Positions 13,913 to 63,853 are shown, counted from the first letter of the whole stretch. The stretch is 63,853 nucleotides of DNA, filler included, from Cystobasidiomycetes sp. EMM_F5 (GCA_051047955.1; 7 parts of 7 records of this genome joined end to end with filler, not necessarily neighbours in it), one strand, 5' to 3'. A program made the numbers and translations. The notes: a model not told the origin generated them from the sequence alone.

Positions 13913-14012
13913 NNNNNNNNNNNNNNNNNNNNNNNNNNNNNNNNNNNNNNNNNNNNTTAATTAATTAANNNNNNNNNNNNNNNNNNNNNNNNNNNNNNNN
14001 NNNNNNNNNNNN
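13913..14012. other. Artificial contig spacer N44-TTAATTAATTAA-N44
   Basis: Six-frame-stop linker. Identical spacers at 23226-23325, 32539-32638, 41456-41555, 49376-49475 and 56934-57033. Confidence 0.98.
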
Positions 14013-23225: not shown

Positions 23226-23325
23226 NNNNNNNNNNNNNNNNNNNNNNNNNNNNNNNNNNNNNNNNNNNNTTAATTAATTAANNNNNNNNNNNNNNNNNNN
23301 NNNNNNNNNNNNNNNNNNNNNNNNN

Positions 23326-23379
23326 ACCTGAAGTCCGAAGAAGCCCGAAGTGGAGACTTCGGTGGGAGCTCGGCTCACA
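23326..23379 (-). repeat. Start of the 3' LTR of element 1 (TGTGAGCCGAGCTC...)
   Basis: Begins TG immediately after the PPT on the minus strand; matches the solo LTR end at 527-576. Confidence 0.8.
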
Positions 23380-23390
23380 TTCCATCCCCC
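23380..23390 (-). other. Polypurine tract GGGGGATGGAA of element 1
   Basis: Purine run abutting the LTR TG. Confidence 0.75.
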
Positions 23391-23655
23391 TAGAAAAGCT
23401 GAGTCCATATGACGAAAGCGTATGTGTGTAAACGTGTATATAGACCAGTTTCAGAGCTGTAGAAGCACTTTGGAAGTCACCGTATTACGTCCGTTGAACG
23501 GTTGTAGACTCCGAAGTGGCACGATCGTACTTCGAGAACAAAAAATTTTTGTCCGAAGTGGCGGAGGCGGGTTGTTTAACAACAACAACACCAACAGCAA
23601 CAGTGAGTTGTGTTTCGGTTTGTGTCGACTTCGTTGTGCTGACACTTCGTGGCAG

Positions 23656-25330: not shown

Positions 25331-25731
25331 TGATCGGGCGGGTGGATGGGTTTTTCTGTTTTGTTTTCTTGATGTTGTAAACGTTTTGTCTTGTAATGTT
25401 AGGGGTTTCTTGACGAATGTTGTATTTTCCAGTAATTAGTTTCATTTCCAGAACGAATGTGAGTCTTTTTCGGTTGACCAGAGTGATTGAGCGAATTGAG
25501 TCTTGATGATTGAATGAGTCTTGAAGATGAGATGAAGTTCATTGGTGTGGAAGTGATGCGAAGGGAAAAAAGATGTTCTGAAGTGGATACGAAGTGGAGT
25601 TGAAGTGAAAATCTTGAGGAATGAAGTAGTCTTGACGAGTCCAAACGAGTGTATAGATGAGTAAACGGTTATTTCTTGAGGGTATATATACGTCCAGTGA
25701 GTTTTTTTTTGAAGGTTTGGTGTACTTCGGT

Positions 25732-28543: not shown

Positions 28544-31500
28544 TTAGTAGGGTTAGTAGGGAGAGTCGCGCCTTTTCGCCTTTATAGACCATGACAATGG
28601 GAGAGGAGAACTGACTCTTTGATGGTCGAATAACTCCTAGTTTGAGTAGGTCATCGATGATTATTGAGATGTCCTGTTTTGTCTTCGGCGAAGTGGGGTA
28701 AGGAGCGGCTCTTAGCTTTACCGGTATTGGGTCTGGTAATTCAACTTCGATCTGTAGAGGTGGCATCTTGCATTCGCCAAGCTGCCTGTCTCCAAAAGCA
28801 AACGCCATCTTGTACTTAAAGAGTACTGCTTTTATAACCCGAAGTTGATCCGAAGTCAGCCCCGAACTGAACTCGGCCTTCCGAAGTGCAGTTCCGAAGT
28901 CGTCTTCTACGAGAGCCATTACCTGTAAAGGATTAGCTGTGGTTACCTGAGACGTTCCCAACGCATAGCGGTTTGGGTTTGTCCCAATCTTGAGCCAACG
29001 GCCTCGAGCGGAGAACAGGTTGAATCCGTATCTGTTCATCACATTGGATCCCACCAGGATCTGTACTCCTGTAGTTGGTAGGTCTAGTACGGTGAATGAT
29101 GCCTGAATTCGAACACTACCTCGCGGGTGTGGGAAAAGCAGAGGTGTCAGATACGTTCCAATAGTCTGAAGTCGGGAGCCGAAGGCAGTGGCTACGGCTT
29201 TGGCTCCGATGATGGTAGTGACATAGCCCGGATCCAATGATTCAAGTAGTGACTTAGAGATCACAGAGATTGATGCACCAGTATCGAGTAGTACCTTGAT
29301 TGGTTTGTTGCATACTACTGCAAGTACTGTCGGAAGTACTCCGAACTGGTCATCCGAAGTGGTCTTGACGGGCTGTAAGTCTATGATGCGGTGCGGAAGA
29401 ACGGTGTTATTCAGCATACTCATAGCAGCCTCATCAGTCAGTGCTACTGGATCATTAAAAGCCCTAGTCTTCTTTGGCGAAGTGCGGACCGAAGTGGTCT
29501 CGCCAACTTCAGAAGTGAAGTGAACTTCGGGCTGAAGTTCCGAAGTGGAAGTTGCACTTCCAGTAGTATCCTCTGCCCTGCATAGAGCCGCAACTGTGGC
29601 TAGTTGGTGCTGAAGAGTCTCGAAGTCACCATCGTCGCGGTCCCAGGGTCCTATTTCAGGATACATGGTATTGTTGTCGTCGGTGTCGAGAGTTCGGACC
29701 GCATTAATATGGTAGACTACTTCGTCCACGGGATAGTCGTCGTAGTGACCATCTTCTTGGTCGTACTCGTCTTGAGCTGGTTCCTGTTGATCCAGTTGTT
29801 CGTCCAGTTCGTCTTCTTCTTCGGGCACTTCAGTAAGTGCATGGACACTTCGGTTGGGGCATTCTGCCTTAGTATGACCCGGCTTCTTACATTGGAAGCA
29901 GAGTCTACGTTCCCGAAGGTCATCGCGTTCTGCCTGACTCATCTGTGGTCTGAACGAAGAAGCCTTCTTCGGTTCCGAAGTGGCCTGCTTGGAAGAAGCA
30001 TATCGCTGCTCCGAAGTAGACTTATCCGCACTGGAAGAAGAACTGTAAGCCTGAGGACGTTGTGTAGCTCTTACTGAGTGGTTATTAGACCTCTGCGGAG
30101 GAGCTGGCCGCGTCTCTCGCCGAGAAGTCAGGTCCGAAGTGCGTCCCCGCTCTTCGTGCCTGGCGTTCTGCTGAAAGAGAGCGATAAAGTCCGTAAGCTT
30201 GCTGATACCAGGAACGAGTGGCTGTATTACTGTAGCTAGTACTGCTGGCGACACTTGATCCAGAAGTTCGTAGCACATGTCGTGAATACCTCGACCTGGA
30301 TCCACAGTTCGTGAAAGTCTGAAATATTCATTGCAGAACTTCGTCGGATCATGTTCGCTCTTAGGGAAACGGTAGCCAGCCAGCTTATTACGCTGTCTTC
30401 GTTTCCAATCTGGAGTTTCGAAGTAATCTACGATTTCTTGCTTCCAGTCTTGCCATCCGATTGGAACATCAGGATCAAGGACTCGGGTAGAGTACCAAGC
30501 CCTAGCTCTTCCGGTAAGTAGTTCGGGAAGGAGTCCAACTATCCAATTCTCGGGGACATTACCGTAGAGAATCCTAGTGTCGATGCGTGTAAACCAATCT
30601 TGATGGTTGCTTTCTGGATGCCCGTCGTAACTCGGAAGATCACTGGCTTTAGGCTGGTTGGGTTTGATCTTCTGAACATAGGACGTCCCATCAGTGTATA
30701 CCTCGGCCTCTGTTACTTCCGGGACTAGTATTGGATCTTTAGCCAGGACTGGAAGTACACTTCGGCGGTTCGGAAGTAGGGCGGGCTCAGAAGTGGCCCG
30801 AAGTGGTACTGAAGTGGGCCGAAGTGGTACTGAAGTGGGCTGAAGTGGCACTTCAGGTCTTCCCGAAGTGAATCTGACTTCTGAAGTGTACTTCGGCAGA
30901 TTTTCAGGCCTTGTCCGAACTGGAGGTGCAGGCGCAAGTGAAGCCAAGGTTGGTTCAAGCTTAGACCGATGGTCGTAAAAGATGTCTCTTGCATCTCTAT
31001 AAGCAGCTCCGGCGGCTTGAAGTTCTCCAGTAGTGTATGCTAGTGCCTTGACAACTTCTTGAAGTGTCGTAGTGACTCTACCGAAGCTTTCTACTTGTTG
31101 CTCCACCTTTTGAGCTAGCTGTTCTTGTCGATGCGTGTGCCAAGTATTTGCTTCTATCATGACATCGACACTGTTGCCAAACTTGCGAAGTAGTCGCTGC
31201 AAGTCTTGGGGTGGAGCGTGGGGATGACTAGGATGAAGATTCGAGGAAGCAGCAACCGGCTCGCTAAACGCAGGAGACTTGGGAAGCGCCGGTTTGAAAC
31301 GAGGATCTTCCATATAGAACTGCTGTGGCTCAACAAGAGTGGGGAACCATGGGCGGAGCGGCGAGCGGAGAAGCAAGCTCTGGTCTCCGGGGTTGTTTAC
31401 CTTTGTCCTGAGTTGAAATAGCAGGTGTGGGAGACTGTGGCTCTTCCAATCCCAAGTTGTTGTCGGGTAAATCAAAAAATTTACTAGACGTTTGAGAAGC

Positions 31501-31710
31501 CTCGATAAGGGCGAGTGCTTCTGGTGTCGCCATCGTGTTAGGGTAATGTACAACCCGACTGAGAGGCGGAGTGTACTGATTTGCCTGTGGCAGAGTAGAT
31601 GTACTCTGTACCGGAGTCGATTCTCCAGGTACTTCGGGTACCAAAGGGAGGTACCTGAATCGACGGGTGGGTAGTGGTGTTCCCAGGGTGATGGGAGTTC
31701 TTGAAGCCAT
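28544..31710 (-). CDS. gag: Gag-protease part of element 1 (frameshifts near 31343 and 28550)
   Basis: MASRTPITLG start; LTGRARAWY capsid-like region; CFQCKKPGHTKAEC; LLDTGAS; the RT N-terminus (IRPSKSQFSSPIVMV) is in the same frame. Confidence 0.88.
30790..30857 (+). repeat. 21-bp tandem repeat CCGAAGTGGTACTGAAGTGGG within gag
   Basis: About three units; encodes PLQPTSVPLRPTSVPLRATSE. Confidence 0.8.
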
Positions 31711-32119
31711 AGTTGAGATCTTTAGTAGACCTCGCGCTACCAGGTGAAAGCCTAGTAACCGGTAGGTCGAAGCTGAAGTGCACTTCGGTGGGATCCGAAG
31801 TGGTTCCTGGGAGCCGAAGTGCAGAGGCGAGACTTCGGTGTACCGGAAGTACTAGCTAATCTGAGGATCTTGTACTAAATCAGCTATGGGTCAAGGTAAT
31901 AGGAGCTTACAATGGTAGATCTGGATTGCCGAGATCTAGAAGTGCCTATTGATGTATAATTTGTACTTCGTCTTGGCCGAAGTACACTTCTCAGACTTCT
32001 ACTTGGTAGAAGTGGGCGAAGTACGATATTAATTATTTAATATCGTTAAAATACCGTTAAATATTATAATAAAAACTTATTATAAAATTCCGTATTGATT
32101 GGTGCTAAGGAAAGGTAGC

Positions 32120-32439
32120 CCGAAGTGGAACCGAAGTGTACTTCGAGTCCCCGAAGTGGATCCGAAGTGGGGCCGAAGTGCAGTTCGGTGGCGTTGGGCG
32201 AGCCGAAGTGCAGTTCGGGTCCGAAGTGCGGTCCGAAGTAGAAGTACCTTTCCGAAGTGAGGATAATAGAAGAACTGGATAGAGTATTGCTTCTAGAATG
32301 TACTCAAAGAAGTATTACGCTTAACCAGAAGTGGATATCGATTGTATTGAAGAAACCGAAGTGCACTTCGGGGTCCGAAGTGAGTCCGAAGTGCGGCCGA
32401 AGTGACCGAAGTGTGCCTTAAGTCGAAGTGGCACTTCGG
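32120..32439 (+). repeat. Clusters of CCGAAGT heptamers in the 5' leader of element 1
   Basis: CCGAAGT at 32120, 32131, 32151, 32162, 32173, 32203, 32221, 32233, 32252, 32356, 32375, 32386, 32397 and 32406; ACTTCGG at 32365 and 32433. Confidence 0.92.
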
Positions 32440-33095
32440 GCACGGGTTGTCTTCTGACAATTCAATATAAAATAGATGTAGGATCGATTGTAGATGTAGA
32501 ATACGTTGTAATATGTATTATATTAAACGTAGATGTAANNNNNNNNNNNNNNNNNNNNNNNNNNNNNNNNNNNNNNNNNNNNTTAATTAATTAANNNNNN
32601 NNNNNNNNNNNNNNNNNNNNNNNNNNNNNNNNNNNNNNTGTTTGTATGAATCGTTGAGACCAATGCCATTACCGCGTTGCCGAGGAACCGAGGCCGAGCA
32701 GGAGACCTGATGGTGGGCTTCATTTGATGACTAGTACTTCTCGAAGAGCTGGGGATTCTGCAGCGCCCGACACAAGTCTCACCATTCGACACCGAGCTGT
32801 CTCAGTCAGTCGACAAACTCACTTTGCATCATCATCATGCCTGCGCGTGGTGTCCGAAAACGGTCTCTGGCCGGATTCGCACGCTTCGCGTACAGGCCCA
32901 CACTGTCAGTATAGCTCGGTCACACGCTGAAAGGATACTCGCAGGTCTCACAAGTTACAGATGTGATACGAAAGTCTGCGCGGGCGTCACTCTCCGCTTG
33001 CTCCCAACCATATCGCCGCTTGATCCTATCGGAAGATCTCTACCAGCGTCATAAGCTATCGTGCTTTCGATACTATCTCCCTCCTTTCGACTGCG

Positions 33096-41091: not shown

Positions 41092-41569
41092 ACTGCAGTC
41101 GTCTTGCGTCCCGGCATTGGGGTATCTGTGGCTGAGGATGTCACTGGTCATGGAGCAGCCGCACTTTGAATATCTATCAATACCGTTCGCGGCGGGGTGC
41201 TGCAGGTGGAGAGCCATAGATGCGGCATCCTCGTGGAATCGTAAATGCCCAATATTGGGTAATGTCGGCCGCGCGTGTGATATCTGAGCAATCTAGCTTC
41301 TCAGGTGGCTAGCGTTGTAGCGCCATACTCTAGCCGAGCATGTTAGTAGCCGCACTGCGCACTCGTACAGCCCACTAAGTTATAAGTTCTTTTGCTCGGC
41401 CTCAGATTCTGGGGAACGCGGTAATGGCATTGGTGTCAACGATGTAAAAGCAACGNNNNNNNNNNNNNNNNNNNNNNNNNNNNNNNNNNNNNNNNNNNNT
41501 TAATTAATTAANNNNNNNNNNNNNNNNNNNNNNNNNNNNNNNNNNNNNNNNNNNNGACTGATCTGGCAG

Positions 41570-47706: not shown

Positions 47707-49375
47707 CTATCCTTGCAGCGGCAGACTGCATATCTCGCAATCAACAACCCCTGGCGGATTGACAAACGTGCAATGGGGGCATGTTATTTCTCCTTGAGTA
47801 CCACCTCCTGCTGCATTAGCGGCTTCCATTAGCTCTGGTGGAATGGCGAAGTCGTCCGCCCTTTGGCCACTTGTATTCGTTTCCCCTGCACCAGACTTGC
47901 GCATCATGTCGTGATCTTCGGGAATGATTGGGAAGCCATCGGCATCGAGCGGGAATTCTGGTGCGCTTGGTGCTGCACCAACGATATCGCCTCTGGCCCG
48001 AGCAGACGGTTTCGGGGCGTGTTCCGCAGCGATGGTAGCTAGCGTTTGCCATGCAGGGGACTTGAGAAGAGCTTCAATATCCTCCGCCTTTTTCGTTGTC
48101 GCTATTTTGGCTAGCAGCGCCATATCCACTTGATCGAAGATACCGACCGTATCCAGAAACGCTAACAAGTGCCAGTCGGATAACCATTGTGTGAGCGCTT
48201 TCGATCCGTCACTGATGTCTTCACGTTGCTTGCCCTTCAAAGCCGAAGACGGTGACGTCAGCATCTCGAAGCCATCTGCATCGAGGCGTTGAGGTAGCGT
48301 CTCTATTATCTTGTTCAAACTGCCCAAAGCCTTTTCCAGAGTCTGGTCTTCAAGGCCTTGTCGATTCTCAACCGGAAATGCAGAATTTGCAGGTGCGATG
48401 AAAAGCGGATTTGGAGTGTTCGGAAAGCCATTCGTAAGCTGTGAACATAAGGTTAGTGCAGGCAATATGTGGAGAAAGTAAAACGTCGTACAGAAACAAG
48501 GAGGTAGTCTGTTGGAAAGCATGGTTTTGCGCTTTCTTTCACTTGCAATTTGTACTCGTTGATGTAGGTGTAAAAGACGTCGGGGATATAGCGCTTCTTC
48601 GTGATGTCGACGCTAGCGCTCGTATCTTCTGTTATTCGAACGATACCGGGATCTACACTGGGTTCTACCATATCCGCTTCAACCAGGGCCATCCCCTGAT
48701 CTGACACTTGATACGCATCTACAGCAATAGCGCCTTCCAGGTTGCCCGTGACGACACAGGTTACGAATTTGGATGAAAAGCGTCCAGTGTCAGAGAAGCG
48801 GGAGGAATTTGGCCTTTGCATCTGTTGCTTTGCTGCGAACAGTGCTTCAAGAGATGAGAGAAAAAATGAATCTTTGTGCCGCTTTGTTATCGCTGCCTTG
48901 TCCTTGACACCGGCAGGAGGTGCAGTCAAATCCGTAAAGATCATGCCCACAACCTTGAGACCACACATCTGAGCCAGTGAGTCAATCTTTCCAGCATCTT
49001 CCCATGGCAGACCGAGTCGTAGCCCGTCGACGTCCCCTTCTTGCGGTGGCTCATGTATAGCTTCGACGACAGCCTTGACGCCCATTGGCACGATATCGTA
49101 GGCTTCGTACCGGCCTAAAAGCCAGCCAAAGCGTTGCATGCCAGTCTTTCGCCAGAATTTGAGCATATTCTCAATGAGGTCGGCCGACGCAAATTCAACG
49201 TGATCCACCATGCGGTACTGTTGTAACGCCAAGGTCACTGCTGAAGGCTGACATTTCGTACATATACCAGCTGGCCAAGCGGGGTGTGAGCCGGATGGAC
49301 AGGGAACTTTGACCTTGTAATCCGGCTGCGAGAGTGGCGGTATAAATGTATTTGAGGCAGCGGCGGTCGTCTTGT
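47707..49375 (-). CDS. NPL4: Nuclear protein localization protein 4 (Cdc48 cofactor), 5' end lost at contig edge
   Basis: HPAWPAGICTKCQPSAVTLALQQYRMVDHVEF; QRFGWLLGRY; VEAIHEPPQ; FSSKFVT; FPVENR; C-terminal NZF finger CPHCTFVN...CEIC. Confidence 0.95.
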
Positions 49376-49683
49376 NNNNNNNNNNNNNNNNNNNNNNNNN
49401 NNNNNNNNNNNNNNNNNNNTTAATTAATTAANNNNNNNNNNNNNNNNNNNNNNNNNNNNNNNNNNNNNNNNNNNNCTAGAACCGGAAGAAGCTGAGCCGG
49501 CGGATGAATCTTGAGCCGGATAGCCGTGTGTGCCGGAGGTACTTGTCTGTCGGATCCGAAGTCTGACTCGAACAGATGTCCGGGCGTTCGGCCAGTGTTC
49601 GAGTGTGCGACAAGCGAAGATGCGGTTGTTGAGGAGATTCGGGAGTTCGAGAGCCGAAAGTTCGGGTCGGGTGAGTGTACTTA

Positions 49684-50210
49684 TGTCAGACCGTGACATC
49701 ACCCCCGTCTGTAGCTCTGAGCTCCTGCGAAGCGGTTTCGGGTGTTCGGCCGAAAATTTGCTGAATTTGGCAATACCTCTTGAAGAAGAAGTTGTACGGA
49801 ATTTTCGATCACTTTTTCGATCTCGTGAGAAAATATGCTTCCGAATGGTACATAATAAGAAGGGGGTTCCGAAAACTCGATCGCTGACTAAGCATAGTCG
49901 TAGTGCCACCAAAACGTGGCACATTCGAAATCAAAATTGTTCCCTGATTCTCGGCGATCATTTTGGTGTACTTGGTATAGGGGGTTGTCGATCTTGTTTT
50001 AGAGTAATTCGACTTTTAGTGCCAAAAGTTGGGATATATATAGGTGGTTCATATTTGATCCTAGTACCAAAAAGTTTTTCGGGCGACCTAGCTTACTGGT
50101 CGGGTACCTGCTTAGTCATCTTTGGCAGCGGGTCACGGGTTCGAGTCCCGAAGCACGAAATTCTTAAGACCGCAGAAATTCGCCAATTTCGGATTGTGGA
50201 CGTCATCACA
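49684..50210 (-). repeat. Probable LTR of element 2
   Basis: On the minus strand it begins TGTGATGAC just after a purine-rich AGGGGAGG (50217-50224) and ends ...TCTGACA. No second copy in the window confirms the left boundary. Confidence 0.5.
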
Positions 50211-50639
50211 GCGGTGCCTCCCCTGGTGTGATGACTAAGCGTTCGGGTTGTCGGGTTTCCTCTATCCTTAAGTCCGACTAGACCGAACTGTGATGCTTTG
50301 CCGGAGATATCCGGTAGGGGGAGGCCATCACAGTGACGTCGAAGTCGGATGGGTAGAGGTCGAGTCGAGCGAACGGGATGATCGTACCTTGCAGCCGGTC
50401 GAGAGGACGTACCTGGTCTTGGACCGGGGAACCTCTTTGCCGAAAGTTACAAGGTGTTCGGGTTCGGCTTTCGGGTTTCGGGTGTTCGAGTGGAAGAATT
50501 GGAATCTTCCAAAGTTCGATCACGGAAGGTTCGATTGGGATTGGGTTTATAAGGCGCGCAGCTTGCTTTCTGCTCTTGTCTTCGTTCCAACCACTTCATT
50601 TGCCACCAACTTTGGGTTTCGTGCCATTCGAAAACAAAG

Positions 50640-51502
50640 ATGTCCGAAAGTTCGAAGCCCCAGGCTAAGCCGGTGGAGTACCATATGGTCGACGGAGAGA
50701 AAGTCAAGATGGCTACCGCATGTCCGCCATGTGTCAATGCGGGCGAGACATGTTATCAAGCGAAAAAGGATGTCGGTAAACCAGGCGAACCGCCTTGCTA
50801 CAGATGCAAGGGCTTGACGAAGGGGCCGAAGTATTGTACCGGTTCGAAGATACCCCCAAAGAGTCCGTCGAAGGTCATCGACATAGTCGATAGTGATTCG
50901 CCTATGGGTATGTCCGAACGTTCGGGTCGAAGTTCAGTTCGGTCTGATGTTATATTGTAGAAGTTGCCTCGAAACCTAAGGCAGTAAAGACCACCAATGA
51001 TGCCACGCCAAAAGCATCCACCGTTCGTATGGCAGAGACTGCAAAGTACGAGCCTCTGGTGCCTTTGGCGGTTCCGGCGATTCGTTCTTGGCAAGAACTC
51101 CTGAGCAAGACGCCTTCGGCCTCCTATTTGATGTCCGAACGTAGCTTGGACACGAAGGTTCGTAGTCTTTGCACTGCTTTGTTCAACAGTACCGCTTGCG
51201 GGGCCGACAATGCTCGAACAGTCAACATTATCGAATGGCTCGAGTTCGCTTTTGCCAAATCGAAGGCAGGTGTTTCGGTTGCCGAAGTGCGACAGGCGAC
51301 CGAACAGCACGAAGTGCAATTCGTCAAGGTCGATAAGGGAAAGAAGCGGGATCTGTCGGAGATGAATGAAGGAGTCCAAATCGAAGAATCGGGTACCGCG
51401 CCCAAGGTACAGGTTCTTGATGTAGAGGCTGGACCTTCGGGAACTTCGGGTGTCGCCGATACTTCGACTAGCACGGAGAATGGGGAGAGTTCGGAGAAGT
51501 AA
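50640..51502 (+). CDS. Antisense accessory gene of element 2; 269 aa, Zn2Cys6-like motif, one intron
   Basis: TATAA at 50548. CPPC-x6-C-x14-CYRC-x9-C. Intron 50908-50960 (GTATGT...CTGAT...TAG) joins the two ORFs in frame. Confidence 0.78.
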
Positions 51503-51708
51503 GGAGGGATGGATTGATATCGGGAAAACGACAAGCATCCGATAGATAGACTTATGTTAAAAGCCAAATAAGGATTAGGCTCTAGTCCACCAAAAAAATA
51601 GTAGTGCAATATAATTATATGTTTGTGACCCGGCTTATGGCCGCGGGTTTCCGACTTCGGGTTTCGACCGAATTTCGGGTCCGAATGTCGGACATGCACA
51701 TTGTTGCA

Positions 51709-54700
51709 CTAACGTCGAACCGCAGGTTCGGAAGTTGTTCGATGTTCCGAAGGGGCTCGCCATACTGGTCGACCACGAGTGTCACTCATAGCTCGAGGTC
51801 GCTTTCGAGGAGTCGAAGGTGTCCGAACAAGATCTTTCGGACTTGGCTTGTGTGGAAACCGAGCGTGATACTCGTCAACTACGTCGGTGAGATTGACTAA
51901 GTCGGCTGCAGGAACCCAGCTGAATTGTTCGGCTGTGTCTTCATATCCTAGCCAATCGATTCGGTACTCTAAACGGTGTTTGCGTTTGTTGATTCGGGAG
52001 TCGACGATGTCTCGAACAGCATAGACTTCTTCTTCGAGGTCGACAGGACCAGGAGGTTCAACTGTACGGCCTTCAATAGTACTTTCGGGTATAGGCCGAA
52101 GTAGAGCTACGTGGAAGACAGGATGGATTGCCGAAAGTTCTGGAGGTAAGTCCAGTTTGTATGCTAGTTCGGAGATCTTTTCTGAGACGGTGAAGGGTCC
52201 GATGTACTTTTCGGAGAACTTGCGAGTTGGTCGAGTTGTTCGGAGGTTTTCCGTCGAGAGCAGGACTTGCTTTCCGACTTCGATGGTATGTTCACTCCTT
52301 TTTCGGTCGGCATAATGCTTCTGATCCGCTTGTGCGTTAGACAGTGTGATTCGAATACGGTCATGGAGCTCTTGTAGCTGAAAGGCATATCGATTGCCTG
52401 GTCCAGCAGTGGCGCCGGGGACAACCGACAAAGATGGATCGAATCCATAAATTGCACGGAACGGTGAAGTACCTGTCGATGTATGGTCTGCGTTGTTGTA
52501 CGCAAATTCGGCTAAGGGTAGCCATTCGGACCAGTCGTCTTGCTGGTAAGCGCAATATATGCGGATGTATTGTTCGAGAGTCTGATTGACTCGTTCGGTT
52601 TGACCATCCGTTTCGGGATGGTAGGCTGTAGATAGTTTGCGATTGATACTGAGTCGAGAGCATAAGGCTTTCCAAAACTTGGATACGAACTTCGAGCCGC
52701 GGTCGGACACGATGTCGTCGGGTAAGCCGTGCTTCGAAAATATGTGTTTGAGAAAGAGAGTCGCTAAGTCTCTCGAAGTAGACGTAACTACTGTTGGAAT
52801 GAAGACTGCCATCTTAGTGAAACGACAGACAACGACAAGTATGGAGTCGAAATTATCGGAAGCGGGTAGCTTTTCGATGAAATCCATGGAAAGTGAAGAC
52901 CATGGTCGTTCGGGAACGGGTAAGGGCTGGAGAGGTCCGAAAGGTTTGGTCCTAAGCGGCTTGTTGCGTGCACACTTCATGCAGGTCGCAATGTAGTCGG
53001 AGACGAATTCTTTCGGGGCTCGCCAGTCGGGTCGTCATGCTTTTGACGTAAGATGCGAAGCTTGATGGCTTCATCAGCTGGTACAGCAATTCGGGAATCC
53101 AGGAGAAGTACGCCATCTTCGCGAAGGGACGGAACCAGTTTCGCGTTGGCGACATCAATTTTGGCCTTGTGTTCTTGTAAGATGAGATCTTCATCCTGTG
53201 CACGGATGAGACTGACGACGAAATCATCTTCGGGCGGTTCGATTTGTCGGACCGTCGAGATTTTGGGTGAAATGTGTGAGTGCGTAAGGAAACGCACAGA
53301 AGTTTCGGTAGAATCGAAACCGTTGACTTGATGTGACTTGATCAGAGTCGCGAAATTGTGAGGGTTGTTTCTGGCATAGGCGCCATCCCCTCCGGTAGGA
53401 TACACGTCGTCCCGACGTGACAGTGCATCAGGCTTATCGCTATGTTTACCAGGCCGATACGTAATCGCGAAATTGTAGTCGGCAAGCATTTCGGCCCAGC
53501 GGACCTGCCGTCTGGTGAGTTGCTTATTTGTCATAAAATAGACGAGTGCTTGATGGTCTGTCAAGACCTGGATGGGTTCGGACGTTGAGAGAAGCATCGA
53601 TCTCCATCGCTTGAACGCCCAGACAATAGCGAGTAGCTCCTTGTCATGGATTTCGTAGTTTAGTTCGGCTGGCAATAATTTGCGAGAGTCGAACGCAATG
53701 GGATGTAGAAGACCGTCTTCGCCATTCTGCGATAGGATGGTACCGATAGCATAGTCGGATGCATCGGTCTCCAGATAAGTGGTTGCATTAGGGTCGAAGT
53801 GCCGAAGGATAGGCGCTGAGGTGAACCTAGTCTTGAGTGACTCGAAAGCTGACTGACATTTGTCAGACCAGGTGAAAGCCGAATCCTTCTTCGTAAGCGC
53901 GGTCAAAGGCGAGACGACTTTGGAATAGTCGCGAATAAATCGCCTGTAGAAGTTGGCAAAGCCGAGGAACGACTGGACGGCTTTGACATGCCGAGGAATT
54001 GGCCAGTCGACTACGGTCTGGACCTTAGTCGGGTCCATGCGGAGACCGTTGATGCCCACAAGATAGCCGAGGAATTCGACTTCGGGCACACCGAAAGTAC
54101 ACTTGCTCGCCTTCGCGTATAGATTGTTCGCGCGCAGCAACGAAAGTACTTTTCGGACGTGCTCGACATGCTCGTCGGGGCTGGAAGAATAGACCAGAAT
54201 ATCGTCAAGATAAACAACAACGAAATGGTCGAGGTGTTCCCGGAAAACATCGTTCATGAGATGTTGAAACGCAGAGGGTGCGTTCGTCAAGCCGAAGGGC
54301 ATGACAAGGAATTCAAAGGAGCCGTATCGACAACGGAATGTCGTTTTCCACTCGTGGCCAGCAGCAATTCGCAGAAGGTGATACGCTCCACGAAGGTCGA
54401 TCTTTGAGTAGATGCTAGCTCCGCGCAGCTGCTCCAGAAGAAAGTTGATCGGCGGAAGTGGATACTTGTTCTTCTTGGTTCGGAGATTTAGCTGACGGTA
54501 GTCTATGCACATCCGCAGAGAAGCGTCTTTCTTCTTGACGAATAGCACTGGTGCACCGATGGGTGCAGTGGAAGCTCGGATAAAACCCATAGACAAGAGG
54601 GTGTCAATTTCTGTCTTGAGGGCTTGTGATTCGGCCGAAGAGGTCGAATAGATGGGGCCAACAGCTGGGATGTCAGACTCATCGAGCAGTTCGATGGCAT

Positions 54701-55390
54701 GATCATAAGGGCGGTGCGGTGGAAGGCGTTCCGCTCTGGCCTTGGAGAAAACGTCCAGATATTCGCTATACTCCGAAGGCACGACACGAAGGATATCTTC
54801 GATGTCGTCGGGATCCTCGTCAGGATCGAAAAAGAAAGAGGGGTCGTTGGCGCGAGAACGACCAGATGGTGTGGCAGGACCAGACTTCGTCATAGCTAAA
54901 TGGGAGTCGGTCGGAAGACGTGGAGAGTCCGCAAGCTCCCAGGAATCGTCTGAAATAAGGGGGAACACTAAAGTGCCTTTGTCCCAATCGAAATTCGGTC
55001 GGGCTTTTCGACACCAAGACATGCCAAGTAAGATTCTGGCAGTCGAAGGTAGGGATGTTATGAGAAGTAATGTCGGCAGCGTGGGACCTGCGACATGGCT
55101 AACCACATCGACTATGATGTACTCAGAGATGTCTTCGGCCTGACTTCCATCTACCATGATGAGAGGAATCGGTTCAGGACACGATTGTCGCATGAAACTC
55201 GGGACTAGGGTATGGTCGATGTAAGAGTCGGTGGCACCCGTGTCGATGCATGCGCTGATGATTTGTGCAGAAATCTCGGGAACTTTTACGAAGTGCACAA
55301 TGGACTTAGGCTCTGGCTGACCGTTCCGAATGGTCGAGATGCGCGCTGGTCCAGAGCGAGCCTCCAGGCGCATATGGAGCTCGCTATCTA
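51709..55390 (-). CDS. pol: Pol of element 2 (protease, RT, RNase H, integrase, chromodomain); broken near 53015
   Basis: [58 protein letters not shown]. Deletion and frameshift in the integrase zinc finger. Confidence 0.93.
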
Positions 55391-56824
55391 GTTTTTTGGC
55401 TGTGCTCGGTGAGCAGAGTCATTCGACGCCACTCGAGCTGTGCTTTGTTGAGGCTTGACCGAACAGTGGTCGATCTTGTGAGGACCGCCGCAATATGCGC
55501 ATAGTCCCTTCTCGGCACGACGTGTTCGTTCGGCATCGTTGATACGACCTTTGCTGTTCAGGACCTTGTCGAGGTTTGGTTTGCTCGAAGAAGTGTTGTT
55601 CGACTTTGGCTGGAATCGAACTTGATTGTTCGAACGATTCGGGAAGCGAGTCGAAGGACGGGGAACGAAAGGTCGATATTCTCGTTCGCGTGGAGGTGCG
55701 TCCTCACGAGAACGATGAGATCCTGGCACACTGACTGATGCACCGTAACGTCTACGGCGAAGCTTCTTGTCTCGTTCGGCTTCCCAGTAGGCGTTGTCGA
55801 GCTCGAGCGCTAGCTCCTGAAGACCCGAAAGCGTCAGAGGCTTTCGATGATGTTTGAGGTCTTCGAGAAGTCGTTCGGGAAGACCGAGCTTGAAGTGATA
55901 CATCAAGGAAGCTTGATCCCACATAACGCGAGTCTGATGGGTTCGGAAATGAGTAAGGTAAGTCGATATCTCATCTCTATCGTCCATCTTGATGTTGTTG
56001 AGCTCATGTTCGGCCGTCGCTTCGGCATTCATGTCACCGAAGACAGCGGACAGAGACTCCTTGAACAATGTCCAATTGTTCAGCATACGATATGCTTCGG
56101 GTTTCGTCTCATCCAGGATGGGTTCGAACCAATCGGCTGCAACTCCTCCAAGATACGAGCCAGCATACAGTACTTTGGCTTCGTCCGAACGGAATCGGTT
56201 CTTGTGATGAAGAAATACGATTGCGAGTTGATTCAGAAAAGGGCGGAGTTTCGCACGATTAACTCCATCGAATTTGTCAGCAGATCGTGCAGGAGGTTCC
56301 TTGAAAGAGACGACCTCGCTAGGCTTGCTTTCGGCTCGTTCGGCTCTTGCTGAACTTTGATTTACTAGTGCCTTGGCAATTGCTTTCCAGTCATCATCTT
56401 CGGATGATATTTCGAGTTTCGGAAGGCCATCGTGGTGTCCCGGGTTCTCGACTTCTTCCGAAAAATCACGAGCTGGGTCTTGAGATTCGGTTGGATGTTC
56501 TGCAGCTTCGAGGCTGGCCAGTCGAGCTGCGACTCGGGCCTCTTCGAGTTCGAGACTCTTGAGACGTCTTTGCAGTTCTCGTTCTTTGACTGACAGCTCT
56601 GCATTCTGTACATCCAGATCTACTCGTTCGACTTCAATGCGAGCCTTGCGAGCAGCGACATTCTCTTCGGTTTCGGATGAGAGATTCGAAGGAAGAGTGC
56701 TTTCGGAGATCTTCGTCGCCTGAACATTGGCGGCTCCGACTGGGAACGACGGTTGTGTCGTTGAGAGATCAATGTCGAGAAGTTCTCGATTCTTGTTGCG
56801 AGAGGTTGTGGATCTTGTATCCAT
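55388..56824 (-). CDS. gag: Gag of element 2
   Basis: KFDG...[23 protein letters not shown] (retrotransposon gag pattern); knuckle [13 protein letters not shown]. Confidence 0.9.
55391..55397 (-). promoter_or_regulatory. -1 ribosomal frameshift heptamer A AAA AAC at the gag stop
   Basis: CCA AAA AAC TAG; the -1 frame continues CTA GAT AGC GAG CTC CAT ATG CGC into pol. Confidence 0.8.
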
Positions 56825-57139
56825 GTTGACATGCGAAGTAGGTATTGGTACTAGTAAACTGTAAGGGGACGTGGCTTTGAGCTGGTTCGAAGACCGAAGA
56901 CTCGAAAGTTCGGACCCGAACTGGGATTCGAAANNNNNNNNNNNNNNNNNNNNNNNNNNNNNNNNNNNNNNNNNNNNTTAATTAATTAANNNNNNNNNNN
57001 NNNNNNNNNNNNNNNNNNNNNNNNNNNNNNNNNTCTTATCTTTTTTAGATAATCTAAAAAGGATAAATAATCGAAACATAAAAAAAAATAAGGGATCAGA
57101 AGGAGCTGAATTTTGAGAATTCAATTAATGTAATAAAAA

Positions 57140-57212
57140 GCTCTGGTAGCTCAAATGGTGAGAGCATCGGTGTGAAGTACCGAATATCTGCGTTCAATCC
57201 GCAGCGAGAGCA
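57140..57212 (+). tRNA. trnF: Mitochondrial tRNA-Phe (GAA)
   Basis: Cloverleaf; anticodon arm TCGGT-GTGAAGT-ACCGA; T-loop TTCAATC. Confidence 0.85.
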
Positions 57213-57508
57213 AAACGAATTATTTTACGTTAAAATATCGGTTTCGTCTTTTAATGTATACAGGTTTAAGCAGTCAAACAAAGGATTTGTCCTTTATAAC
57301 TATTCCTGAATCGAGTGATAATCTTTAGTACGCAGCACTTTTTCCTGTTTTAAAGTGGGGTTTTTTTTTCGCCCATTCTGATTGGTTTTCATTTTTAGAT
57401 TACAATGTTGAAATAATCTCAACAAATAAAAACAAACGATAATCAGGTGCTGGTTTTTATCCTCTGAAAAATAACTTACAATAAAGTTTTGATTTCCTTT
57501 TTCAGGTT

Positions 57509-57573
57509 TCGATTCCTTCTCAAGCTTCTGAATCTTTATAAAATAAAGATTCAGAAGCTTGAGAAGGAATCGA
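57509..57573. repeat. Perfect palindrome, 31-bp arms and 3-nt loop; member of a dispersed mitochondrial hairpin family
   Basis: TCGATTCCTTCTCAAGCTTCTGAATCTTTAT-AAA-ATAAAGATTCAGAAGCTTGAGAAGGAATCGA. Relatives near 57575, 58890, 58990, 59335, 61280 and 61510. Confidence 0.9.
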
Positions 57574-57754
57574 GTTATAAAGCTTCTGAATCTTTATAAA
57601 ATAAAGATTCACATGCTTGATAAGGAATCGAAATGAGTCCATTGCTGAGTTTGTTGAACCTCACAGTAAGAATCAGTAAAAAGAATCCGAAGCTGCGAAA
57701 TAAAGACGCCGTGGATTAAGTAGTAGTAGACGTTAATAGACATACATTAAAAAA

Positions 57755-58735
57755 ATGATAAATGTAAAACGCTCAGAAGCTAAAATTTACGCTACATCTT
57801 TCCGAGTTGCTGAGTCCATTGTTGATTTTTCAACAATTACAAGAATGGGAACTGAAAAACACAGTGTACTGATTAATCACAAACCCCGGTTTGCTTCCAC
57901 AATTTGAAGCGAACAAGTTCGTACCCTGGTTAGTCCTGCCAGATCGTCTTATCAGTTTCATCCCTACCACTTAGTAGATCCTTCTCCCTGACCACTAATA
58001 ACATCCTTTGCTCTGCTAACGCTAACCTTATCTGCAGCAATGTATTTTAACGGCTATGCCAACGGTGGAACTTTATTAACCTTGGGGTTTTTATCCACAT
58101 TATTTGCCATGATTTTATGGTTTAGAGATGTTTCTGCAGAAGGGTCCTTTTTAGGTCACCACACTTTTGCAGTACAAAAAGGGCTTAATTTAGGGGTCGC
58201 TCTTTTTATTGTAAGTGAAGTGTTTTTTTTTATTTCTATTTTTTGAGCTTATTTCCATAGTGCACTAGCCCCTACTGTAGAACTAGGTGCGCACTGACCT
58301 CCAGCAGGAATCGATGCTCTTAATCCTTTTGAAATCCCTTTACTAAACACAATTATTTTACTTTCCTCGGGTGCCACAGTCACGTACGCACATCACTCTT
58401 TAATTAAAGGAGAAAGAAAAGGTACATTATTAGGAATTATTTTAACCGTAGTACTAGCTTTAATTTTCACGGGACTACAAGGTTTAGAGTATCACTTAGC
58501 ACCGTTTACTTTAAGTGACGGAGCTTATGGAAGTACATTCTTTTTTGCAACCGGATTCCATGGTCTTCATGTTATTATCGGTACACTGTTTATTGCAGTG
58601 GCCTTTTTTAGAATTTTATCTTACCATGTTACAGATCACCACCACTTAGGGTTTGAATCTTCCATTTTATACTGACACTTTGTCGACGTTGTCTGACTAT
58701 TTTTATACATTTCTATTTATTGATGAGGAGCTTAA
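57755..58735 (+). CDS. cox3: Cytochrome c oxidase subunit 3 (code 4), with long N-terminal region
   Basis: QFHPYHLVDPSPWP, GHHT, SEVFFF, WPP, PLLNT, TGFHGLHV, YWHFVDVVW; TGA=Trp; intronless. Confidence 0.95.
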
Positions 58736-59092
58736 AAACATCCCTTTTTTCTTAGTTTAAAGTATTTACATTAAAAACATTTGTACCGATTATTTTCATT
58801 CGCAGCGCCTGATTATTGTTTTTTTTTTATTGGTTGAAATTGTTGCTGAGTCAGCAAGTTATCAAGCATCTTCGCAGCTCCGCTGCGAACGAATATTTAT
58901 AAAATAAAGATTCGTTCGCTTTAATATATATTCTTGCGAATACGCCAGAATAACCTTGATAAAGCAACAATGGAATCTAAAAAGGAATCGAGTTATAAAG
59001 CTTCTGAATATTTATAAAATAAATATTCACATGCTTGATAAGGAATCGGAATGAGTCTTAACCGTATACAAACAGTCTTCACTGTAAGACAC

Positions 59093-59164
59093 AGGTCTTT
59101 AGTTTAACGGTTAGAACGAGCAACCGATAATTGCTAAAAGGTGGTTCAATTCCTCCAAGACCTA
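59093..59164 (+). tRNA. trnI: Mitochondrial tRNA-Ile (GAT)
   Basis: Acceptor AGGTCTT/AAGACCT; anticodon arm AGCAA-CCGATAA-TTGCT. Confidence 0.85.
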
Positions 59165-59784
59165 GCATGAAGATAGTTATATGAGCTTCCAGAATAACTA
59201 GGTTAATTTTCAGAACGTATATTTATTAAAGGATTATTTTCTTATACCTTCCGATTATTTTGATTTACAATCAAGTTCTCCTTTTTAGATTCTTTAAAAA
59301 AAAGAAGGAATATGAATGAGTCCATATTTTTTCTCAAGCATGTGAATATTTATTTTATAAATATTCAGAAGCTTTATAACTTTATGTTTCGATTCATTCT
59401 TTTTTAGATAATCTAAAAACAAGCTAATAATACGACCTTCTGGATTTTTACTTAAAAATCAGGGGAGGACCCCGGGGTCTTCACCGTACAGATTTTAAAC
59501 CTGTCCTTAAAATACGCAGGCCGCTGCCTGTTAAAATGTGCTTAGTTAATAATCTTTAATAAAAAAAAATATCTAGCTCATTTTAGTTAGCAATTATATA
59601 ACATTACCAAACACATTCAGTGAAAACCTTTAATATTGTAAATATTCACATATAAGAATATATGAAGATTTATTCTAAATCTTCAGCTATTTTAAGAACA
59701 AGGTTTTTAATGTTTTACTCTAAAAATACAGAGTAGGAGATAAAGGGTTGAAAATAAATTGTTAACGTCTAATAAAATTTAAAC

Positions 59785-60966
59785 ATGAGATTACTAAAAA
59801 CACATCCTATTTTAGGATTATTAAACAGTTATATGGTTGATTCACCTCAGCCAGCTAATATTTCCTATATGTGAAATTTCGGATCACTACTTGGTGCTTG
59901 TCTAGGTATCCAAATTGTAACAGGGGTTACATTAGCTATGCACTATACGCCGTCTGTGGACCTAGCTTTTATCAGCGTTGAGCATATTATGCGGGACGTT
60001 AATTATGGATGACTAATTCGGTATTTACATGCCAACGTTGCATCCTTTTTCTTTATTTTCGTGTACTTACACATTGGTAGAGGTCTATATTACGGGTCAT
60101 ACAAGTATCCTCGTACATTAGTATGATCTATTGGAGTAATTATCCTTGTATTAATGATTATTATTGCCTTTTTAGGTTACGTTTTACCCTACGGGCAAAT
60201 GTCATTATGAGGTGCAACCGTAATTACTAATTTAGTGTCTGCAGTTCCATGAATTGGACAGGACATTGTAGAATTTTTATGAGGGGGATTTTCTGTAAGT
60301 AATGCTACACTTAACCGATTTTACTCGTTACATTTTGTATTACCTTTTGCATTAGCTGCATTAGTAGTAGCTCACTTAATTGCTCTACATGAGCACGGAT
60401 CAGGAAATCCTCTGGGTATCTCTGGAAATACAGACCGAATTCCATTCCATCCTTACTTTACATTTAAAGACTTAGTTACAGTATTTGCCTTTTTACTAGC
60501 TTTATCCATTATTGTTTTCTACGCGCCTAATTTATTAGGGCATAGTGATAATTATATTCCAGCAAATCCTATGCAAACACCTGCATCTATTGTTCCAGAG
60601 TGATATTTATTACCTTTTTATGCCATTTTACGGTCAATTCCAAACAAACTATTAGGGGTTATCGCCATGTTAGCTGCTTTATTGATTCTATTACTAATGC
60701 CTTTACTAGATACATCACGAATTCGAGGGGCGCAATTCCGACCTTTAATGCGAGCTGCTTTCTGAAGTTTAGTCGGAATTTTCTTTAGCTTAATGTACCT
60801 AGGTGCTTGCCATGTAGAAGACCCTTTCATTCTGGTTGGACAAGTATTTACGGCCCTTTATTTTAGTTGATTTTTAGTGCTTGTACCAGTGATTGGGATG
60901 ATTGAAAATACACTGTTAGATCTGGCTACACAAAATAAACCGGGTGATATGAGCCTAGTACATTAA
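59785..60966 (+). CDS. cob: Apocytochrome b (393 aa, code 4, intronless)
   Basis: [50 protein letters not shown]. Confidence 0.97.
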
Positions 60967-61655
60967 AAAATCCTTTTAATACCAAAGCGTTAAAACCTCC
61001 CTTTTAAATAAAGACCTTAAAAAATCCTTTTAATACTTTTCAGGACGCAGGTTTATTATTTGAGTTTTCAGGGCTCTAGTTTTTCGTTGCTGAGTTTGTT
61101 GAATATGTTGCTGAGTTTGTTGAATAAACTTCAACAATAACCTCAGCAAATTCAACAAAGGGGCCCGTTCTTTATTAATCATAAATAATGCCCCTGAAAA
61201 AGGCCCTGAAAATGGATTCTTATACCTTCCTATTATTTTAATTTTTTTATTGGTTAAAATTGTTGCTGACTTCTTATCAAGCGCCTGAATCTTTATTTTT
61301 ATAAAGATTCAGCAGCTTGATAAAGCAACAATGGAATCTAAAAAAGAACTTACAATCAAGCCTGAGAAGAAATCGAAAGGAATCTAAAAAGAACTTACAA
61401 TCAAGCTTGAGAAGAAATCGAGTTATAAAGGTTATTCGCTTTAATATTGACCATTGCTGAGGCCTTATCAAGCAGAGCTTGATAAGGCAGCAAGGGTCAA
61501 TATTCTTGCGTGTGAATTTTTTTTTATAAATATTCAGCAGCTTGATAAGGAATCTAAAAACAAGCTAATAATACGACCTCCTGGATTTTTAATTCGCAAG
61601 TTCGCAATAATATTTATTATTGCGAAACAAAAATAAGGGTCTTCACCGTAAGTCA

Positions 61656-61737
61656 GCAAAAGTGTTGAAATGGTAGCCAATCGAAGCTTAAGATTTCGTG
61701 ACATTATGTCGTGTGGGTTCAAGTCCCACCTTTTGCA
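61656..61737 (+). tRNA. trnL: Mitochondrial tRNA-Leu (TAA)
   Basis: Acceptor GCAAAAG/CTTTTGC; anticodon loop CTTAAGA; long variable arm GACAT-TATGTC. Confidence 0.88.
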
Positions 61738-61861
61738 TACAAATCGAAAAAAAAACCTTTTCTTTTTTTCGACGTAAAGTAACGTATAAGTAGATTATTA
61801 AATAACCACTTGTGCTTATAATGCATAAGTGAGTAATTATTTTAGGTTTTTTTTCATAAAA

Positions 61862-63580
61862 AATAAGAGTTTGGTCCTGGCTCAGCTTAAACGGTATCTA
61901 GCAGGTTAAGACATGCAAGTTGGTCCTTTTTTTCAGTCGATCTCTTTTTGAGGGTGGTTTTTACCCCCTTCAAAAAGATATCTGCTGAAATTCGAGGTAT
62001 TGGCGTAGAGGTGAGGATTGCTAAGTAGATACGACACAGTTTGTTCCGATTCATTTCCTTTTCAGAGGAATCTGAAAAAGTTAATCGAAACGAATCGGAA
62101 TGAGTTTCAATTGCTTTGCACCTAATAGGTAGTAGGACTTTGCGGTGTTTATTTTGGGTAGTTATAACCTGAATATTTGTATATATACTAGCAAAATAAT
62201 TATATATCGCAGGGGCTTTGCCATTTTTTATGGCAAAGAGAGGTAATAGCTCAACTAGCCAGAGATAGGTAGGAAAAAATAAACGTTTTTATCCCACAAC
62301 GGGTGTGAGATTCCCCCGGGGCATCATACGATGTACAGCAGTCACAAATCATTGTCAATGAGCCTAATCGCTTATTATTAATTTAATTTGTTTATCCTTG
62401 TGAAAAACAAGGTTAAGCCTAATAATAAGCAAGTAGCTTGAACATGCTAGCTAGAATCTAAATTAGATTTATATAGTTTAGACACTTATCTGCTCATTCG
62501 CAATAATATAGATTAAAGCGAAACAAAAGTAATAATGATACAAGGTAAGTGAAGTCCCTCCTAATCATCGTGCCAGCCGGAGCGGTTATACGATTGGGGC
62601 GACCGTTAAGCCACATACATATGCGTAAAGAGTGCGCAGGTCGCCGGTTTGGATGATAACATTAAAATTTTAATGTAATCATATAAACTGGCTAGATTCT
62701 AAAAGATGTAACTAGAACGGCTAGAGGAAGGATGAAATCTGTTGATCCTAGTTTGACTGCTAAAGGCGAAGGCAGGTTGCAAATAAAGAATGACATTGAG
62801 GCACGAAAGCGTGGGGAGTGACCTTGATTAGATACCAAGTTAATCCACGCTGTAAACGATGGGTATTAAGATTTTTGATCTAATGCAAACGCGATAAATA
62901 CCCCGCAACATTAGTATACCCGCAAGAGTGAAAATGAAAGGACTAGACGGTTTCAAAGACCCAGAGTGAAGCATGTTATTTAATGCGATGACCCACGCAA
63001 AACCTTACCATCGCTTGTATCCGGTTATTATATTTCATGATCATGAACTTAAATAGCTGTGACAGGTGTTGCATGGCTGTCTTCAATTCATGTCGCAAGA
63101 CTTAAGGTTAAGTCCGCTAATGAATGCAAACCCTACAGTTAAAAGGATAACATTAAAATTTTAATGTAAATCACTATAGATCTTAGCTGTTTGCCCCTTA
63201 TATAGGGGATATACTGGGACTAAGACAAGCCTTTATGACCCTTATGCGATGGGCTATAGACGTGCCGCAAAAACAATTACAGTATGATGCAATGTTGTAA
63301 AACATAGCTAAACATTAAAAATTGTTCAGTCCGAATTGTAGTCTGAAACTCGGCTACATGAAGAAGGAATTCTGAGTAATCGTGAATTAGTAGGTCACGG
63401 TGAAGTTTATATTTGAGATGTACTAACTGCACATCACACGAAGGGAGTGGTATGTTGCGAAAATAGGCTACTAGCTTTCATTTAAATATGAAACAAAGTA
63501 TCTTATGTGGTAACAGCCGTGACTTTTGTGAAGTTGTAACACGGATGCTGTACGGGAACGTGTAGCAGATGGATAAATTC
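61862..63580 (+). rRNA. rns: Mitochondrial small-subunit rRNA (ends approximate)
   Basis: AGAGTTTGGTCCTGGCTCAG, ACATGCAAGT, GTGCCAGCCG, ATTAGATACC, GCATGGCTGTC, GAAGTTGTAAC and a terminal helix. Confidence 0.95.
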
Positions 63581-63766
63581 TATAACCCCCTTATTTAACC
63601 ATTAAAAATCCTACAGTGAATACATTAAAAATTCTTTATAAGAATATATTAGATATATTCTTATAAAGAATTTTTAATGTGCATAACTTTTTTAGGTTAT
63701 CTAAAACCCGAACCCGGGTGTGAAAATCATGGTATTTTCAGGACGTATATTTATTATATGATTCTA

Positions 63767-63853
63767 TTTTTATCCTGAGTCTTCACCGTACTCTTTAATA
63801 TTTTTATCCTGAGTCTTCACCGTACTCTTTAATATTTTTATCCTGAGTCTTCA
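63767..63853 (+). repeat. 34-bp perfect tandem repeat (about 2.5 copies to the window end)
   Basis: Unit TTTTTATCCTGAGTCTTCACCGTACTCTTTAATA. Confidence 0.9.

Follow-up and report, generated by a model that had tools for sequence, protein, structure and literature searches.

A two-exon antisense gene with a six-cysteine module, probably carried by a chromovirus-type Ty3/Gypsy element of a basidiomycete yeast

We analyzed a 63,853-nt stretch of DNA from Cystobasidiomycetes sp. EMM_F5 (GCA_051047955.1), hereafter called the window, and characterized an intron-bearing gene read in the opposite direction from gag and pol of a Ty3/Gypsy retrotransposon. The gene (50640–51502, plus strand) is an antisense open reading frame (ORF) downstream of pol, whose stop codon lies at 51709 on the minus strand. 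We hold with high confidence that this two-exon, protein-coding antisense gene is real. On balance, we favor the view that it is a genuine gene lying reversed in the short stretch that separates pol from the polypurine tract (PPT) and 3′ long terminal repeat (LTR) of a chromodomain-bearing Ty3/Gypsy element. The window is made of seven contigs strung end to end with six identical 100-nt spacers between them. As the contigs are merely joined by these spacers, adjacency across a spacer means nothing. The gene lies in the contig 49476–56933, of 7458 nt, for which a blastn search against the whole window returned the self-match only and no second copy. The host assembly is a short-read assembly (Illumina/SPAdes) with an N50 of 529 kb, annotated by funannotate 'predict' in a description where RNA data go unmentioned (PMC12697161).

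The original prediction described a TATAA at 50548, an ATG at 50640, a 53-nt intron at 50908–50960, and a 269-aa product, all of which we found on reading the sequence (table 1). The ATG is the first one past an in-frame stop at 50550–50552 and has an A at position −3. The intron joins frame 0 to the frame of the ORF 50948..51502, which results in a spliced coding sequence of 810 nt encoding 269 aa with one terminal stop. An exact look-up retrieved a deposited hypothetical protein of 269 aa, P0012, identical to the spliced product and with the same junction (DSDSPM-E-VASKPK); it is encoded on a contig of 7458 nt, as long as the one analyzed here. Because the deposited annotation was made ab initio, P0012 represents an independent computational model and not transcript evidence. 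According to a codon log-likelihood trained on the gag-pol ORFs of the window, exon 2 scores 0.221 bits per codon, the value of the integrase/pol control, versus at most 0.037 in the other five frames, and exon 1 is too short for its codon score to separate it from its antisense frame. The minus strand of the gene region contains two overlapping reading frames, of 252 and 194 aa, with lower codon scores and no family match below E 0.1 in Pfam. A search of public sequencing runs listed no RNA run and a single DNA run, X1, whose comparison with the whole contig yielded a 151-nt contig covering 50610–50760 with four differences, three of which are listed (two synonymous, one altering Ala9). A close relative of this segment is thus present in another sample. 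The same run otherwise contains short, divergent pieces over the reverse transcriptase (RT), with no joints and no boundary information.

A phmmer search with exon 2 against 1,835,955,588 representative proteins returned four matches at E ≤ 0.001, one of which is the window's own ORF call. The three others are P0008 (7.8e-9), P0009 (3.8e-7), and P0010 (1.8e-6), and a family profile search added a fourth relative, P0013. The alignment of the six family sequences has 20 invariant columns, among them W133, L137, S138, P141, Y145, E149, D153, K155, R157, L159, L163, F164, A171, D172, F185, and G193 (P0012 numbering). Four of the six sequences share a tail motif, GPSGTS or GTSG. These significant relatives, together with the identical deposited protein, indicate that the gene is real and encodes a member of a small unnamed family.

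The relative P0010, of 277 aa, carries an N-terminal C-x2-C-x6-C-x10-C-x2-C-x6-C followed by the same helical domain, and this matching two-part build supports the joining of exon 1 to exon 2. The pattern C-x2-C-x6-C-x14-C-x2-C-x9-C, reported in the original prediction, is present in the exon 1 translation and aligns cysteine for cysteine with C23..C54 of P0010. The local score of this alignment was reached by 19 of 2000 composition-preserving shuffles. The shorter relatives begin near the exon-junction position, like the window's intron-blind ORF call P0004 (157 aa), and are probably truncated calls. In the AlphaFold2 (AF2) models, short helices are found at both CxxC pairs, in blocks with a predicted local distance difference test (pLDDT) of 57–73; the models are of low confidence overall (mean pLDDT 49.2 and 52.8). 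A helical structure is predicted for the C-terminal domain, with no informative fold match: Foldseek gave no match against the PDB at E ≤ 0.001, and the best Z in a wide VIA-align search, obtained with generic helical chains, was 7.3, a value that this tool counts as noise for helical models. Searching solved structures by sequence retrieved nothing meaningful, the best hit being cytochrome c at E 0.036. In word-based protein searches, exon 2 matched itself only, and exon 1, compared with longer proteins, gave nothing at E ≤ 1. A protein atlas contained no usable match for exon 2, and the leads for exon 1 were all below 0.9. One of the atlas leads, DUF3716 (PF12511; a cluster with 28% DUF3716, at 0.77), was rejected, Pfam having matched this family neither to the exon 1 protein P0001 (E ≤ 1) nor to P0012 (E ≤ 10). 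A similarity of residues 184–211 to Phage_ASH (16.8–17.9 bits against a cut-off of 26) was taken as chance.

The carrier element is a chromovirus-type Ty3/Gypsy retrotransposon: the minus strand of the contig encodes, in order, gag, RT, RNase H, integrase, and a C-terminal chromodomain, as identified with Pfam. The SH3 domain of the integrase ORF is of the Tf2 type, the protease has a weak Pfam match (E 0.077), and the pol stop codon (51709–51711, minus strand) is preceded by a basic tail. The gag initiation codon lies about 110 nt from the contig end. Between the ORF encoding RT and RNase H (RT-RH) and the integrase ORF, the reading frame changes at a break inside the integrase H2C2 finger (52977–53060, minus strand), a domain matched over profile positions 40–58 only. 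This frame break inside the integrase zinc finger indicates that the pol gene of the assembled copy is damaged. On the element sense strand, the best PPT candidate, 50562–50588, is the longest of five purine-rich tracts in the contig. Two of these tracts are located downstream of pol, 50562–50588 and 50255–50270, and only the former is followed by TG. The candidate lies 51 nt beyond the ATG of the antisense gene. The TATAA, which in antisense reading belongs to the initial 13 nt of the putative 3′ LTR, may act as a promoter element. We found no repeat partner in the window for the putative 3′ LTR 49476–50560.

Table 1. Features of the antisense gene, its carrier element, and the window
Feature	Coordinates	Strand	Description
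TATAA	50548..50552	+	Sequence read; 88 nt upstream of ATG
Exon 1	50640..50907	+	Codons 1–89 and first base of codon 90; same as deposited P0012
Six-cysteine module	50721..50837	+	C28-x2-C31-x6-C38-x14-C53-x2-C56-x9-C66
Intron, 53 nt, spliceosomal type	50908..50960	+	GTATGT 5′ site; CTGAT at 50944–50948, branch-like; TAG 3′ site
Perfect palindrome CCGAACGTTCGG	50914..50925	.	Inside intron; once in window
Exon 2 with TAA stop	50961..51502	+	Codon score 0.221 bits per codon
Conserved alpha-helical domain	51062..51337	+	About residues 124–215; phmmer matches, alignments, AF2 helices (block pLDDT 64–75)
Spacer, gene stop to pol stop	51503..51708	.	206 nt, convergent 3′ ends, without purine-rich tract
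Putative 3′ LTR or other element sequence	49476..50560	−	Runs to contig end; CGAA/TTCG 35.0 per kb
Best polypurine-tract candidate	50562..50588	−	27 nt, then TG at 50560–50559 (putative 3′ LTR start)
Integrase core, SH3, chromodomain ORF (pol end)	51709..53034	−	Pfam rve 7.2e-10, SH3_Tf2-1 1.3e-19, Chromo 1.5e-8
Protease-like, RT, RNase H ORF	52977..55418	−	Pfam RVT_1 2.9e-33, RT_RNaseH 4.4e-36
gag ORF	55388..56824	−	Pfam Retrotrans_gag 5.9e-9; ATG at 56824; CCHC knuckle near end
CCGAA-NN-TTCGG sites	49654 (perfect), 50644 (codons 2–5), 50914 (intron, perfect)	.	≤1 mismatch
CCGAA-NN-TTCGG sites	51720, 52131, 53297 (inside pol), 56902 (element 5′ untranslated region)	.	≤1 mismatch
100-nt spacers	13913–14012, 23226–23325, 32539–32638, 41456–41555, 49376–49475, 56934–57033	.	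N44-TTAATTAATTAA-N44

The intron holds the perfect palindrome announced by the original prediction, and this 12-nt sequence is unique in the window. Its proposed role as an autoregulatory site of the intron is not supported in that form. With up to one mismatch, the motif CCGAA-NN-TTCGG occurs at seven sites in the contig, including pol coding sequence and the 5′ untranslated region (UTR), and at none in the six other contigs. As the palindrome is one of seven sites distributed over the whole contig, the motif is element-wide and not specific to the intron. The window contains 24 perfect palindromes of 12 nt, six of which are spacer artefacts, for about 15 expected, and simulations with Markov models trained on the contig give about two per contig, as observed. 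The form CCGAA-N-G-TTCGG, also with up to one mismatch, has six sites for simulated means of 0.8–1.2, a count reached in none of 300 simulations at either Markov order. With up to two mismatches, 16 of the 26 CCGAA-NN-TTCGG sites lie in 49476–51708. The motif has GAA-NN-TTC at its core, as heat-shock elements do. Nothing ties the motif to the encoded protein, and its being the target of this protein is not supported. A distinct repetition was observed in the same region: the 8-mer ATGTCCGA occurs four times in 1.1 kb, at 50640, 50910, and 51131 on the plus strand and at 51688–51695 on the minus strand, corresponding to the start codon, the second base of the intron, exon 2, and the opposite strand near the pol stop, and once elsewhere in the window. 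The first 15 nt of the gene and bases 3–17 of the intron are identical at 14 of 15 positions.

That the gene is carried by the element seems to us quite likely. With no PPT-like tract in the 206-nt spacer, a complete 3′ LTR between the stop codons of the gene and of pol is excluded. The tetranucleotides CGAA/TTCG occur at 41.7 per kb in the gene, 35.0 in 49476–50560, and 28.0 in gag-pol, compared with 8.7 in three host-like contigs. Over entire Gypsy contigs, the densities are 31.5 per kb for 49476–56933 and 19.6 for 23326–32538, with 8.7 for the host-like ones. The PPT-like tract followed by TG and the shared CGAA/TTCG excess make the gene probably element-borne, and a contig of 7458 nt in an assembly of this contiguity fits a sequence bounded by repeats. 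Of the original proposal of an antisense gene inside a Gypsy element, the antisense orientation is thus established, 206 nt past a chromovirus pol stop; the location inside the element is probable, no LTR pair having been found. Several observations weigh against our interpretation. No LTR pair in the contig, no target-site duplication, and no other copy in the window were identified, so that the element boundary is placed by a single PPT-like tract and by composition. The cluster of each relative is found on one or two contigs, unlike what is expected of a high-copy element gene, and a broken pol next to an intact gene would fit retention by the host equally well. The deposited gene model was predicted ab initio (PMC12697161), exon 1 scores 0.060 bits per codon versus 0.074 for its antisense frame, and the function of the protein is wholly inferred, with two AF2 models of low confidence. 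Scans of metagenome contigs with the family profile and with P0013, and of viral contigs, recovered no locus of the relatives. The gene could accordingly be an ordinary or domesticated single-copy host gene standing beside a decayed Gypsy copy, outside the transposing unit. The damaged integrase finger beside an intact gene, the one or two contigs of every family member, the missing LTR bracket in contig and window, and the existence of 50610–50760 in another sample with four differences would all agree with it. We nevertheless consider it unlikely: the gap to the pol stop leaves no room for a complete 3′ LTR, the fourfold to fivefold CGAA/TTCG excess of the element and its private CCGAA-NN-TTCGG motif are both shared by the gene and by the adjoining 1.1 kb, and the contig ends 1.16 kb past the ATG, which is unexpected for unique host DNA in a contiguous assembly. 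Much less credit can be given to a frame left open by chance where stop codons are few, with a fortuitous intron supplied by the gene predictor and no protein made. Each strand does have several open frames here, as the minus ORFs of 252 and 194 aa illustrate, the annotation is ab initio, and the exon 1 codon score is ambiguous. However, the significant phmmer relatives among 1.84 billion proteins, with their 20 invariant columns, largely exclude this explanation, and the matching two-domain architecture of P0010, an exon 2 codon score equal to that of pol, and the lower scores of the overlapping minus-strand translations, which have no family match below E 0.1, go in the same direction.

The original prediction described the cysteine spacing as close to that of canonical zinc clusters, which did not hold. 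The consensus of Zn2Cys6 proteins is C-x2-C-x6-C-x5-12-C-x2-C-x6-8-C, and two of the five spacers of the window protein (x14 and x9, in x2, x6, x14, x2, x9) are outside this range. Conversely, those of P0010 (x2, x6, x10, x2, x6) all fall within it. The Zn_clus profile (PF00172) matched neither exon 1 (P0001, E ≤ 1) nor P0012 (E ≤ 10) in Pfam. For P0010, it scored 9.8 bits (E 1.1), below the gathering threshold of 21 bits, with residues 43–56 paired out of register with profile positions 2–15. In domains of the Gal4/Ppr1 type, Lys or Arg residues between the second and third cysteines contact the CGG triplet; the corresponding stretch, which reads VNAGET for the window protein and IEHGLI for P0010, contains neither. 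Membership in the Zn2Cys6 family, which fails in the profile, spacing, and basic-residue comparisons of these sequences, is therefore not supported, and the protein is probably not a classical Gal4-type factor. It may still contain a Zn2Cys6-like zinc module, given six conserved cysteines in the order of a binuclear cluster and the AF2 helices at the CxxC pairs. With the clusters of Gal4, Ppr1, and Leu3, the protein shares this six-cysteine order, a proline before the fourth cysteine, a fungal host, and a canonically spaced relative. It differs from them by its failure against the profile, its x14 loop and x9 last spacer, and the lack of basic DNA-contact residues; it has no coiled-coil or middle homology region and carries instead a private helical C-terminal domain. 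These likenesses, including the fully canonical P0010 and the short AF2 helices, could also be those of a divergent true Zn2Cys6 factor that would bind CCG...CGG sites, the intron palindrome among them, and would regulate itself or the element. The over-representation of CCGAA-NN-TTCGG in the element, with sites in the 5′ UTR, the putative LTR, the gene start, and the intron, would suit such a factor. Against it stand the profile results for the protein and for P0010, the two aberrant spacers, the absence of Lys and Arg from VNAGET, a PDB sequence search without match to any zinc-cluster protein, and the several motif copies inside pol coding sequence. We consider it distinctly improbable.

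In the arrangement that we favor, a reversed gene between pol and the PPT, the gene would be transcribed from its own promoter at the border of the PPT and U3, in the direction opposite to gag-pol, and the 53-nt intron would be removed from the antisense transcript only. Since the splice signals are present in the genomic RNA as their complement, retrotransposition would leave the intron in place, and only an antisense gene could then stay interrupted in such an element. The same principle underlies the antisense-intron reporter cassettes (his3AI, neoAI) that serve in retrotransposition assays. In both cases, splicing does not remove the intron of an antisense gene from the genomic RNA of the retroelement around it. 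The cassettes are engineered and the present gene is natural, and their logic is used here only to explain the persistence of the intron. The product may be a small zinc-binding protein, probably nuclear, which could act on nucleic acid or chromatin of the element itself, as an accessory factor or a copy-number regulator. A bolder scenario would have the element carry its own regulator, a highly divergent binuclear zinc-cluster protein expressed from an intron-protected antisense gene, binding the private CCGAA-NN-TTCGG (CCG-N6-CGG) sites and tuning sense and antisense transcription, with a second, unrelated chromovirus having independently placed a cysteine-rich antisense ORF in the same slot. 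We regard this scenario as very improbable. If true, the sites of the regulator would be in the element 5′ UTR, the putative LTR, the gene's own start, and its intron.

Among known kinds of feature, the closest are additional ORFs in antisense that separate pol from the 3′ LTR. Such ORFs (aORF-3R), whose function is unknown, are presented in a review for Grande1 of maize, RIRE2 of rice, Retand of Silene, and PvRetro13 of Phaseolus (PMC7264820). The main text of this review contains no occurrence of the term 'intron' (PMC7264820). For the plant cases, presence in most copies of the element serves as the criterion. As far as these plant elements are described there, the present gene resembles their ORFs by its place downstream of pol and probably ahead of the 3′ LTR, its antisense orientation, its unknown function, and a product without known family. 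Unlike these ORFs, found in plant hosts and mostly in non-chromoviruses, it probably belongs to a chromovirus of a basidiomycete yeast, and it has a spliceosomal intron and a six-cysteine module. A fungal case is known in the Boty Gypsy elements of Botrytis cinerea and Sclerotinia, which carry the antisense gene brtn, according to three sources (PMC7264820, PMC8365987, PMC4227169). Compared by description only, Boty is likewise a Gypsy element of fungi that has a chromodomain and an additional gene in antisense. Its host is an ascomycete, and the descriptions consulted mention neither a cysteine module nor an intron. The original description of brtn is reportedly that of Zhao et al. 2011 (Virology 417:248). 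Tcn1-like chromoviruses of fungi and plants have been surveyed as well, and a figure legend there names an 'additional ORF with unknown function' (PMC2864245). The open-access literature that we searched contained no account of an intron-bearing antisense gene with a cysteine module in a basidiomycete chromovirus. Most likely, the gene is an element-borne antisense accessory gene, a feature of known kind whose protein family and host group are new.

A second chromovirus in the window, with its pol stop at 25732, has two antisense ORFs downstream of pol, 23413–24522 and 24774–25274, both on the plus strand. The former is a frame of 369 aa ending in C-x2-C-x9-C-x16-CC-x2-C-x8-C; the latter is a frame of 166 aa, rich in Lys, Arg, and Glu. 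The RT-RH regions of the two chromoviruses are 35% identical over 366 aa. In agreement with the original prediction, the present protein has no visible similarity to the product of 23413–24522 outside the cysteines. The hhalign probability was 0.2%, with six cysteines lined up, the best BLASTP match had an E of 0.70, and the observed score was reached by 685 of 2000 shuffles. The family hidden Markov model did not find this ORF in the six-frame window at E ≤ 10. Homology between the two was rejected, the similarity not being above chance.

The remaining contigs are of diverse nature. The first contains direct repeats (787–1206 and 13267–13686) that are 98% identical and 12,480 nt apart and look like the LTRs of a long decayed element; every ORF of this contig is shorter than 190 aa. 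The contig neighboring that of the gene in the window encodes an NPL4-family protein (ORF 47707–48612, minus strand; 2.4e-15), an ordinary host gene. The last contig, 57034–63853, is AT-rich (33–40% GC), with many short AT-rich repeats, carries tRNA-Phe(gaa), tRNA-Ile(gat), and tRNA-Leu(taa), and is probably mitochondrial DNA. A tRNA-like appearance of 50100–50200 was discarded, ARAGORN and Rfam (E ≤ 1) reporting nothing there.

Extra antisense genes in LTR retrotransposons are known and unexplained, with examples nearly all from plants. If the present gene belonged to the host, beside a dead element, it would represent one more uncharacterized fungal protein family. As an element gene, it would offer a compact and workable system in a culturable yeast with an 18.6-Mb genome: its intron makes it suitable for simple reverse transcription PCR, the six-cysteine module for metal- and DNA-binding assays, and the element-private motif supplies candidate target sites. 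Such a case could help to show what antisense genes do in these elements.

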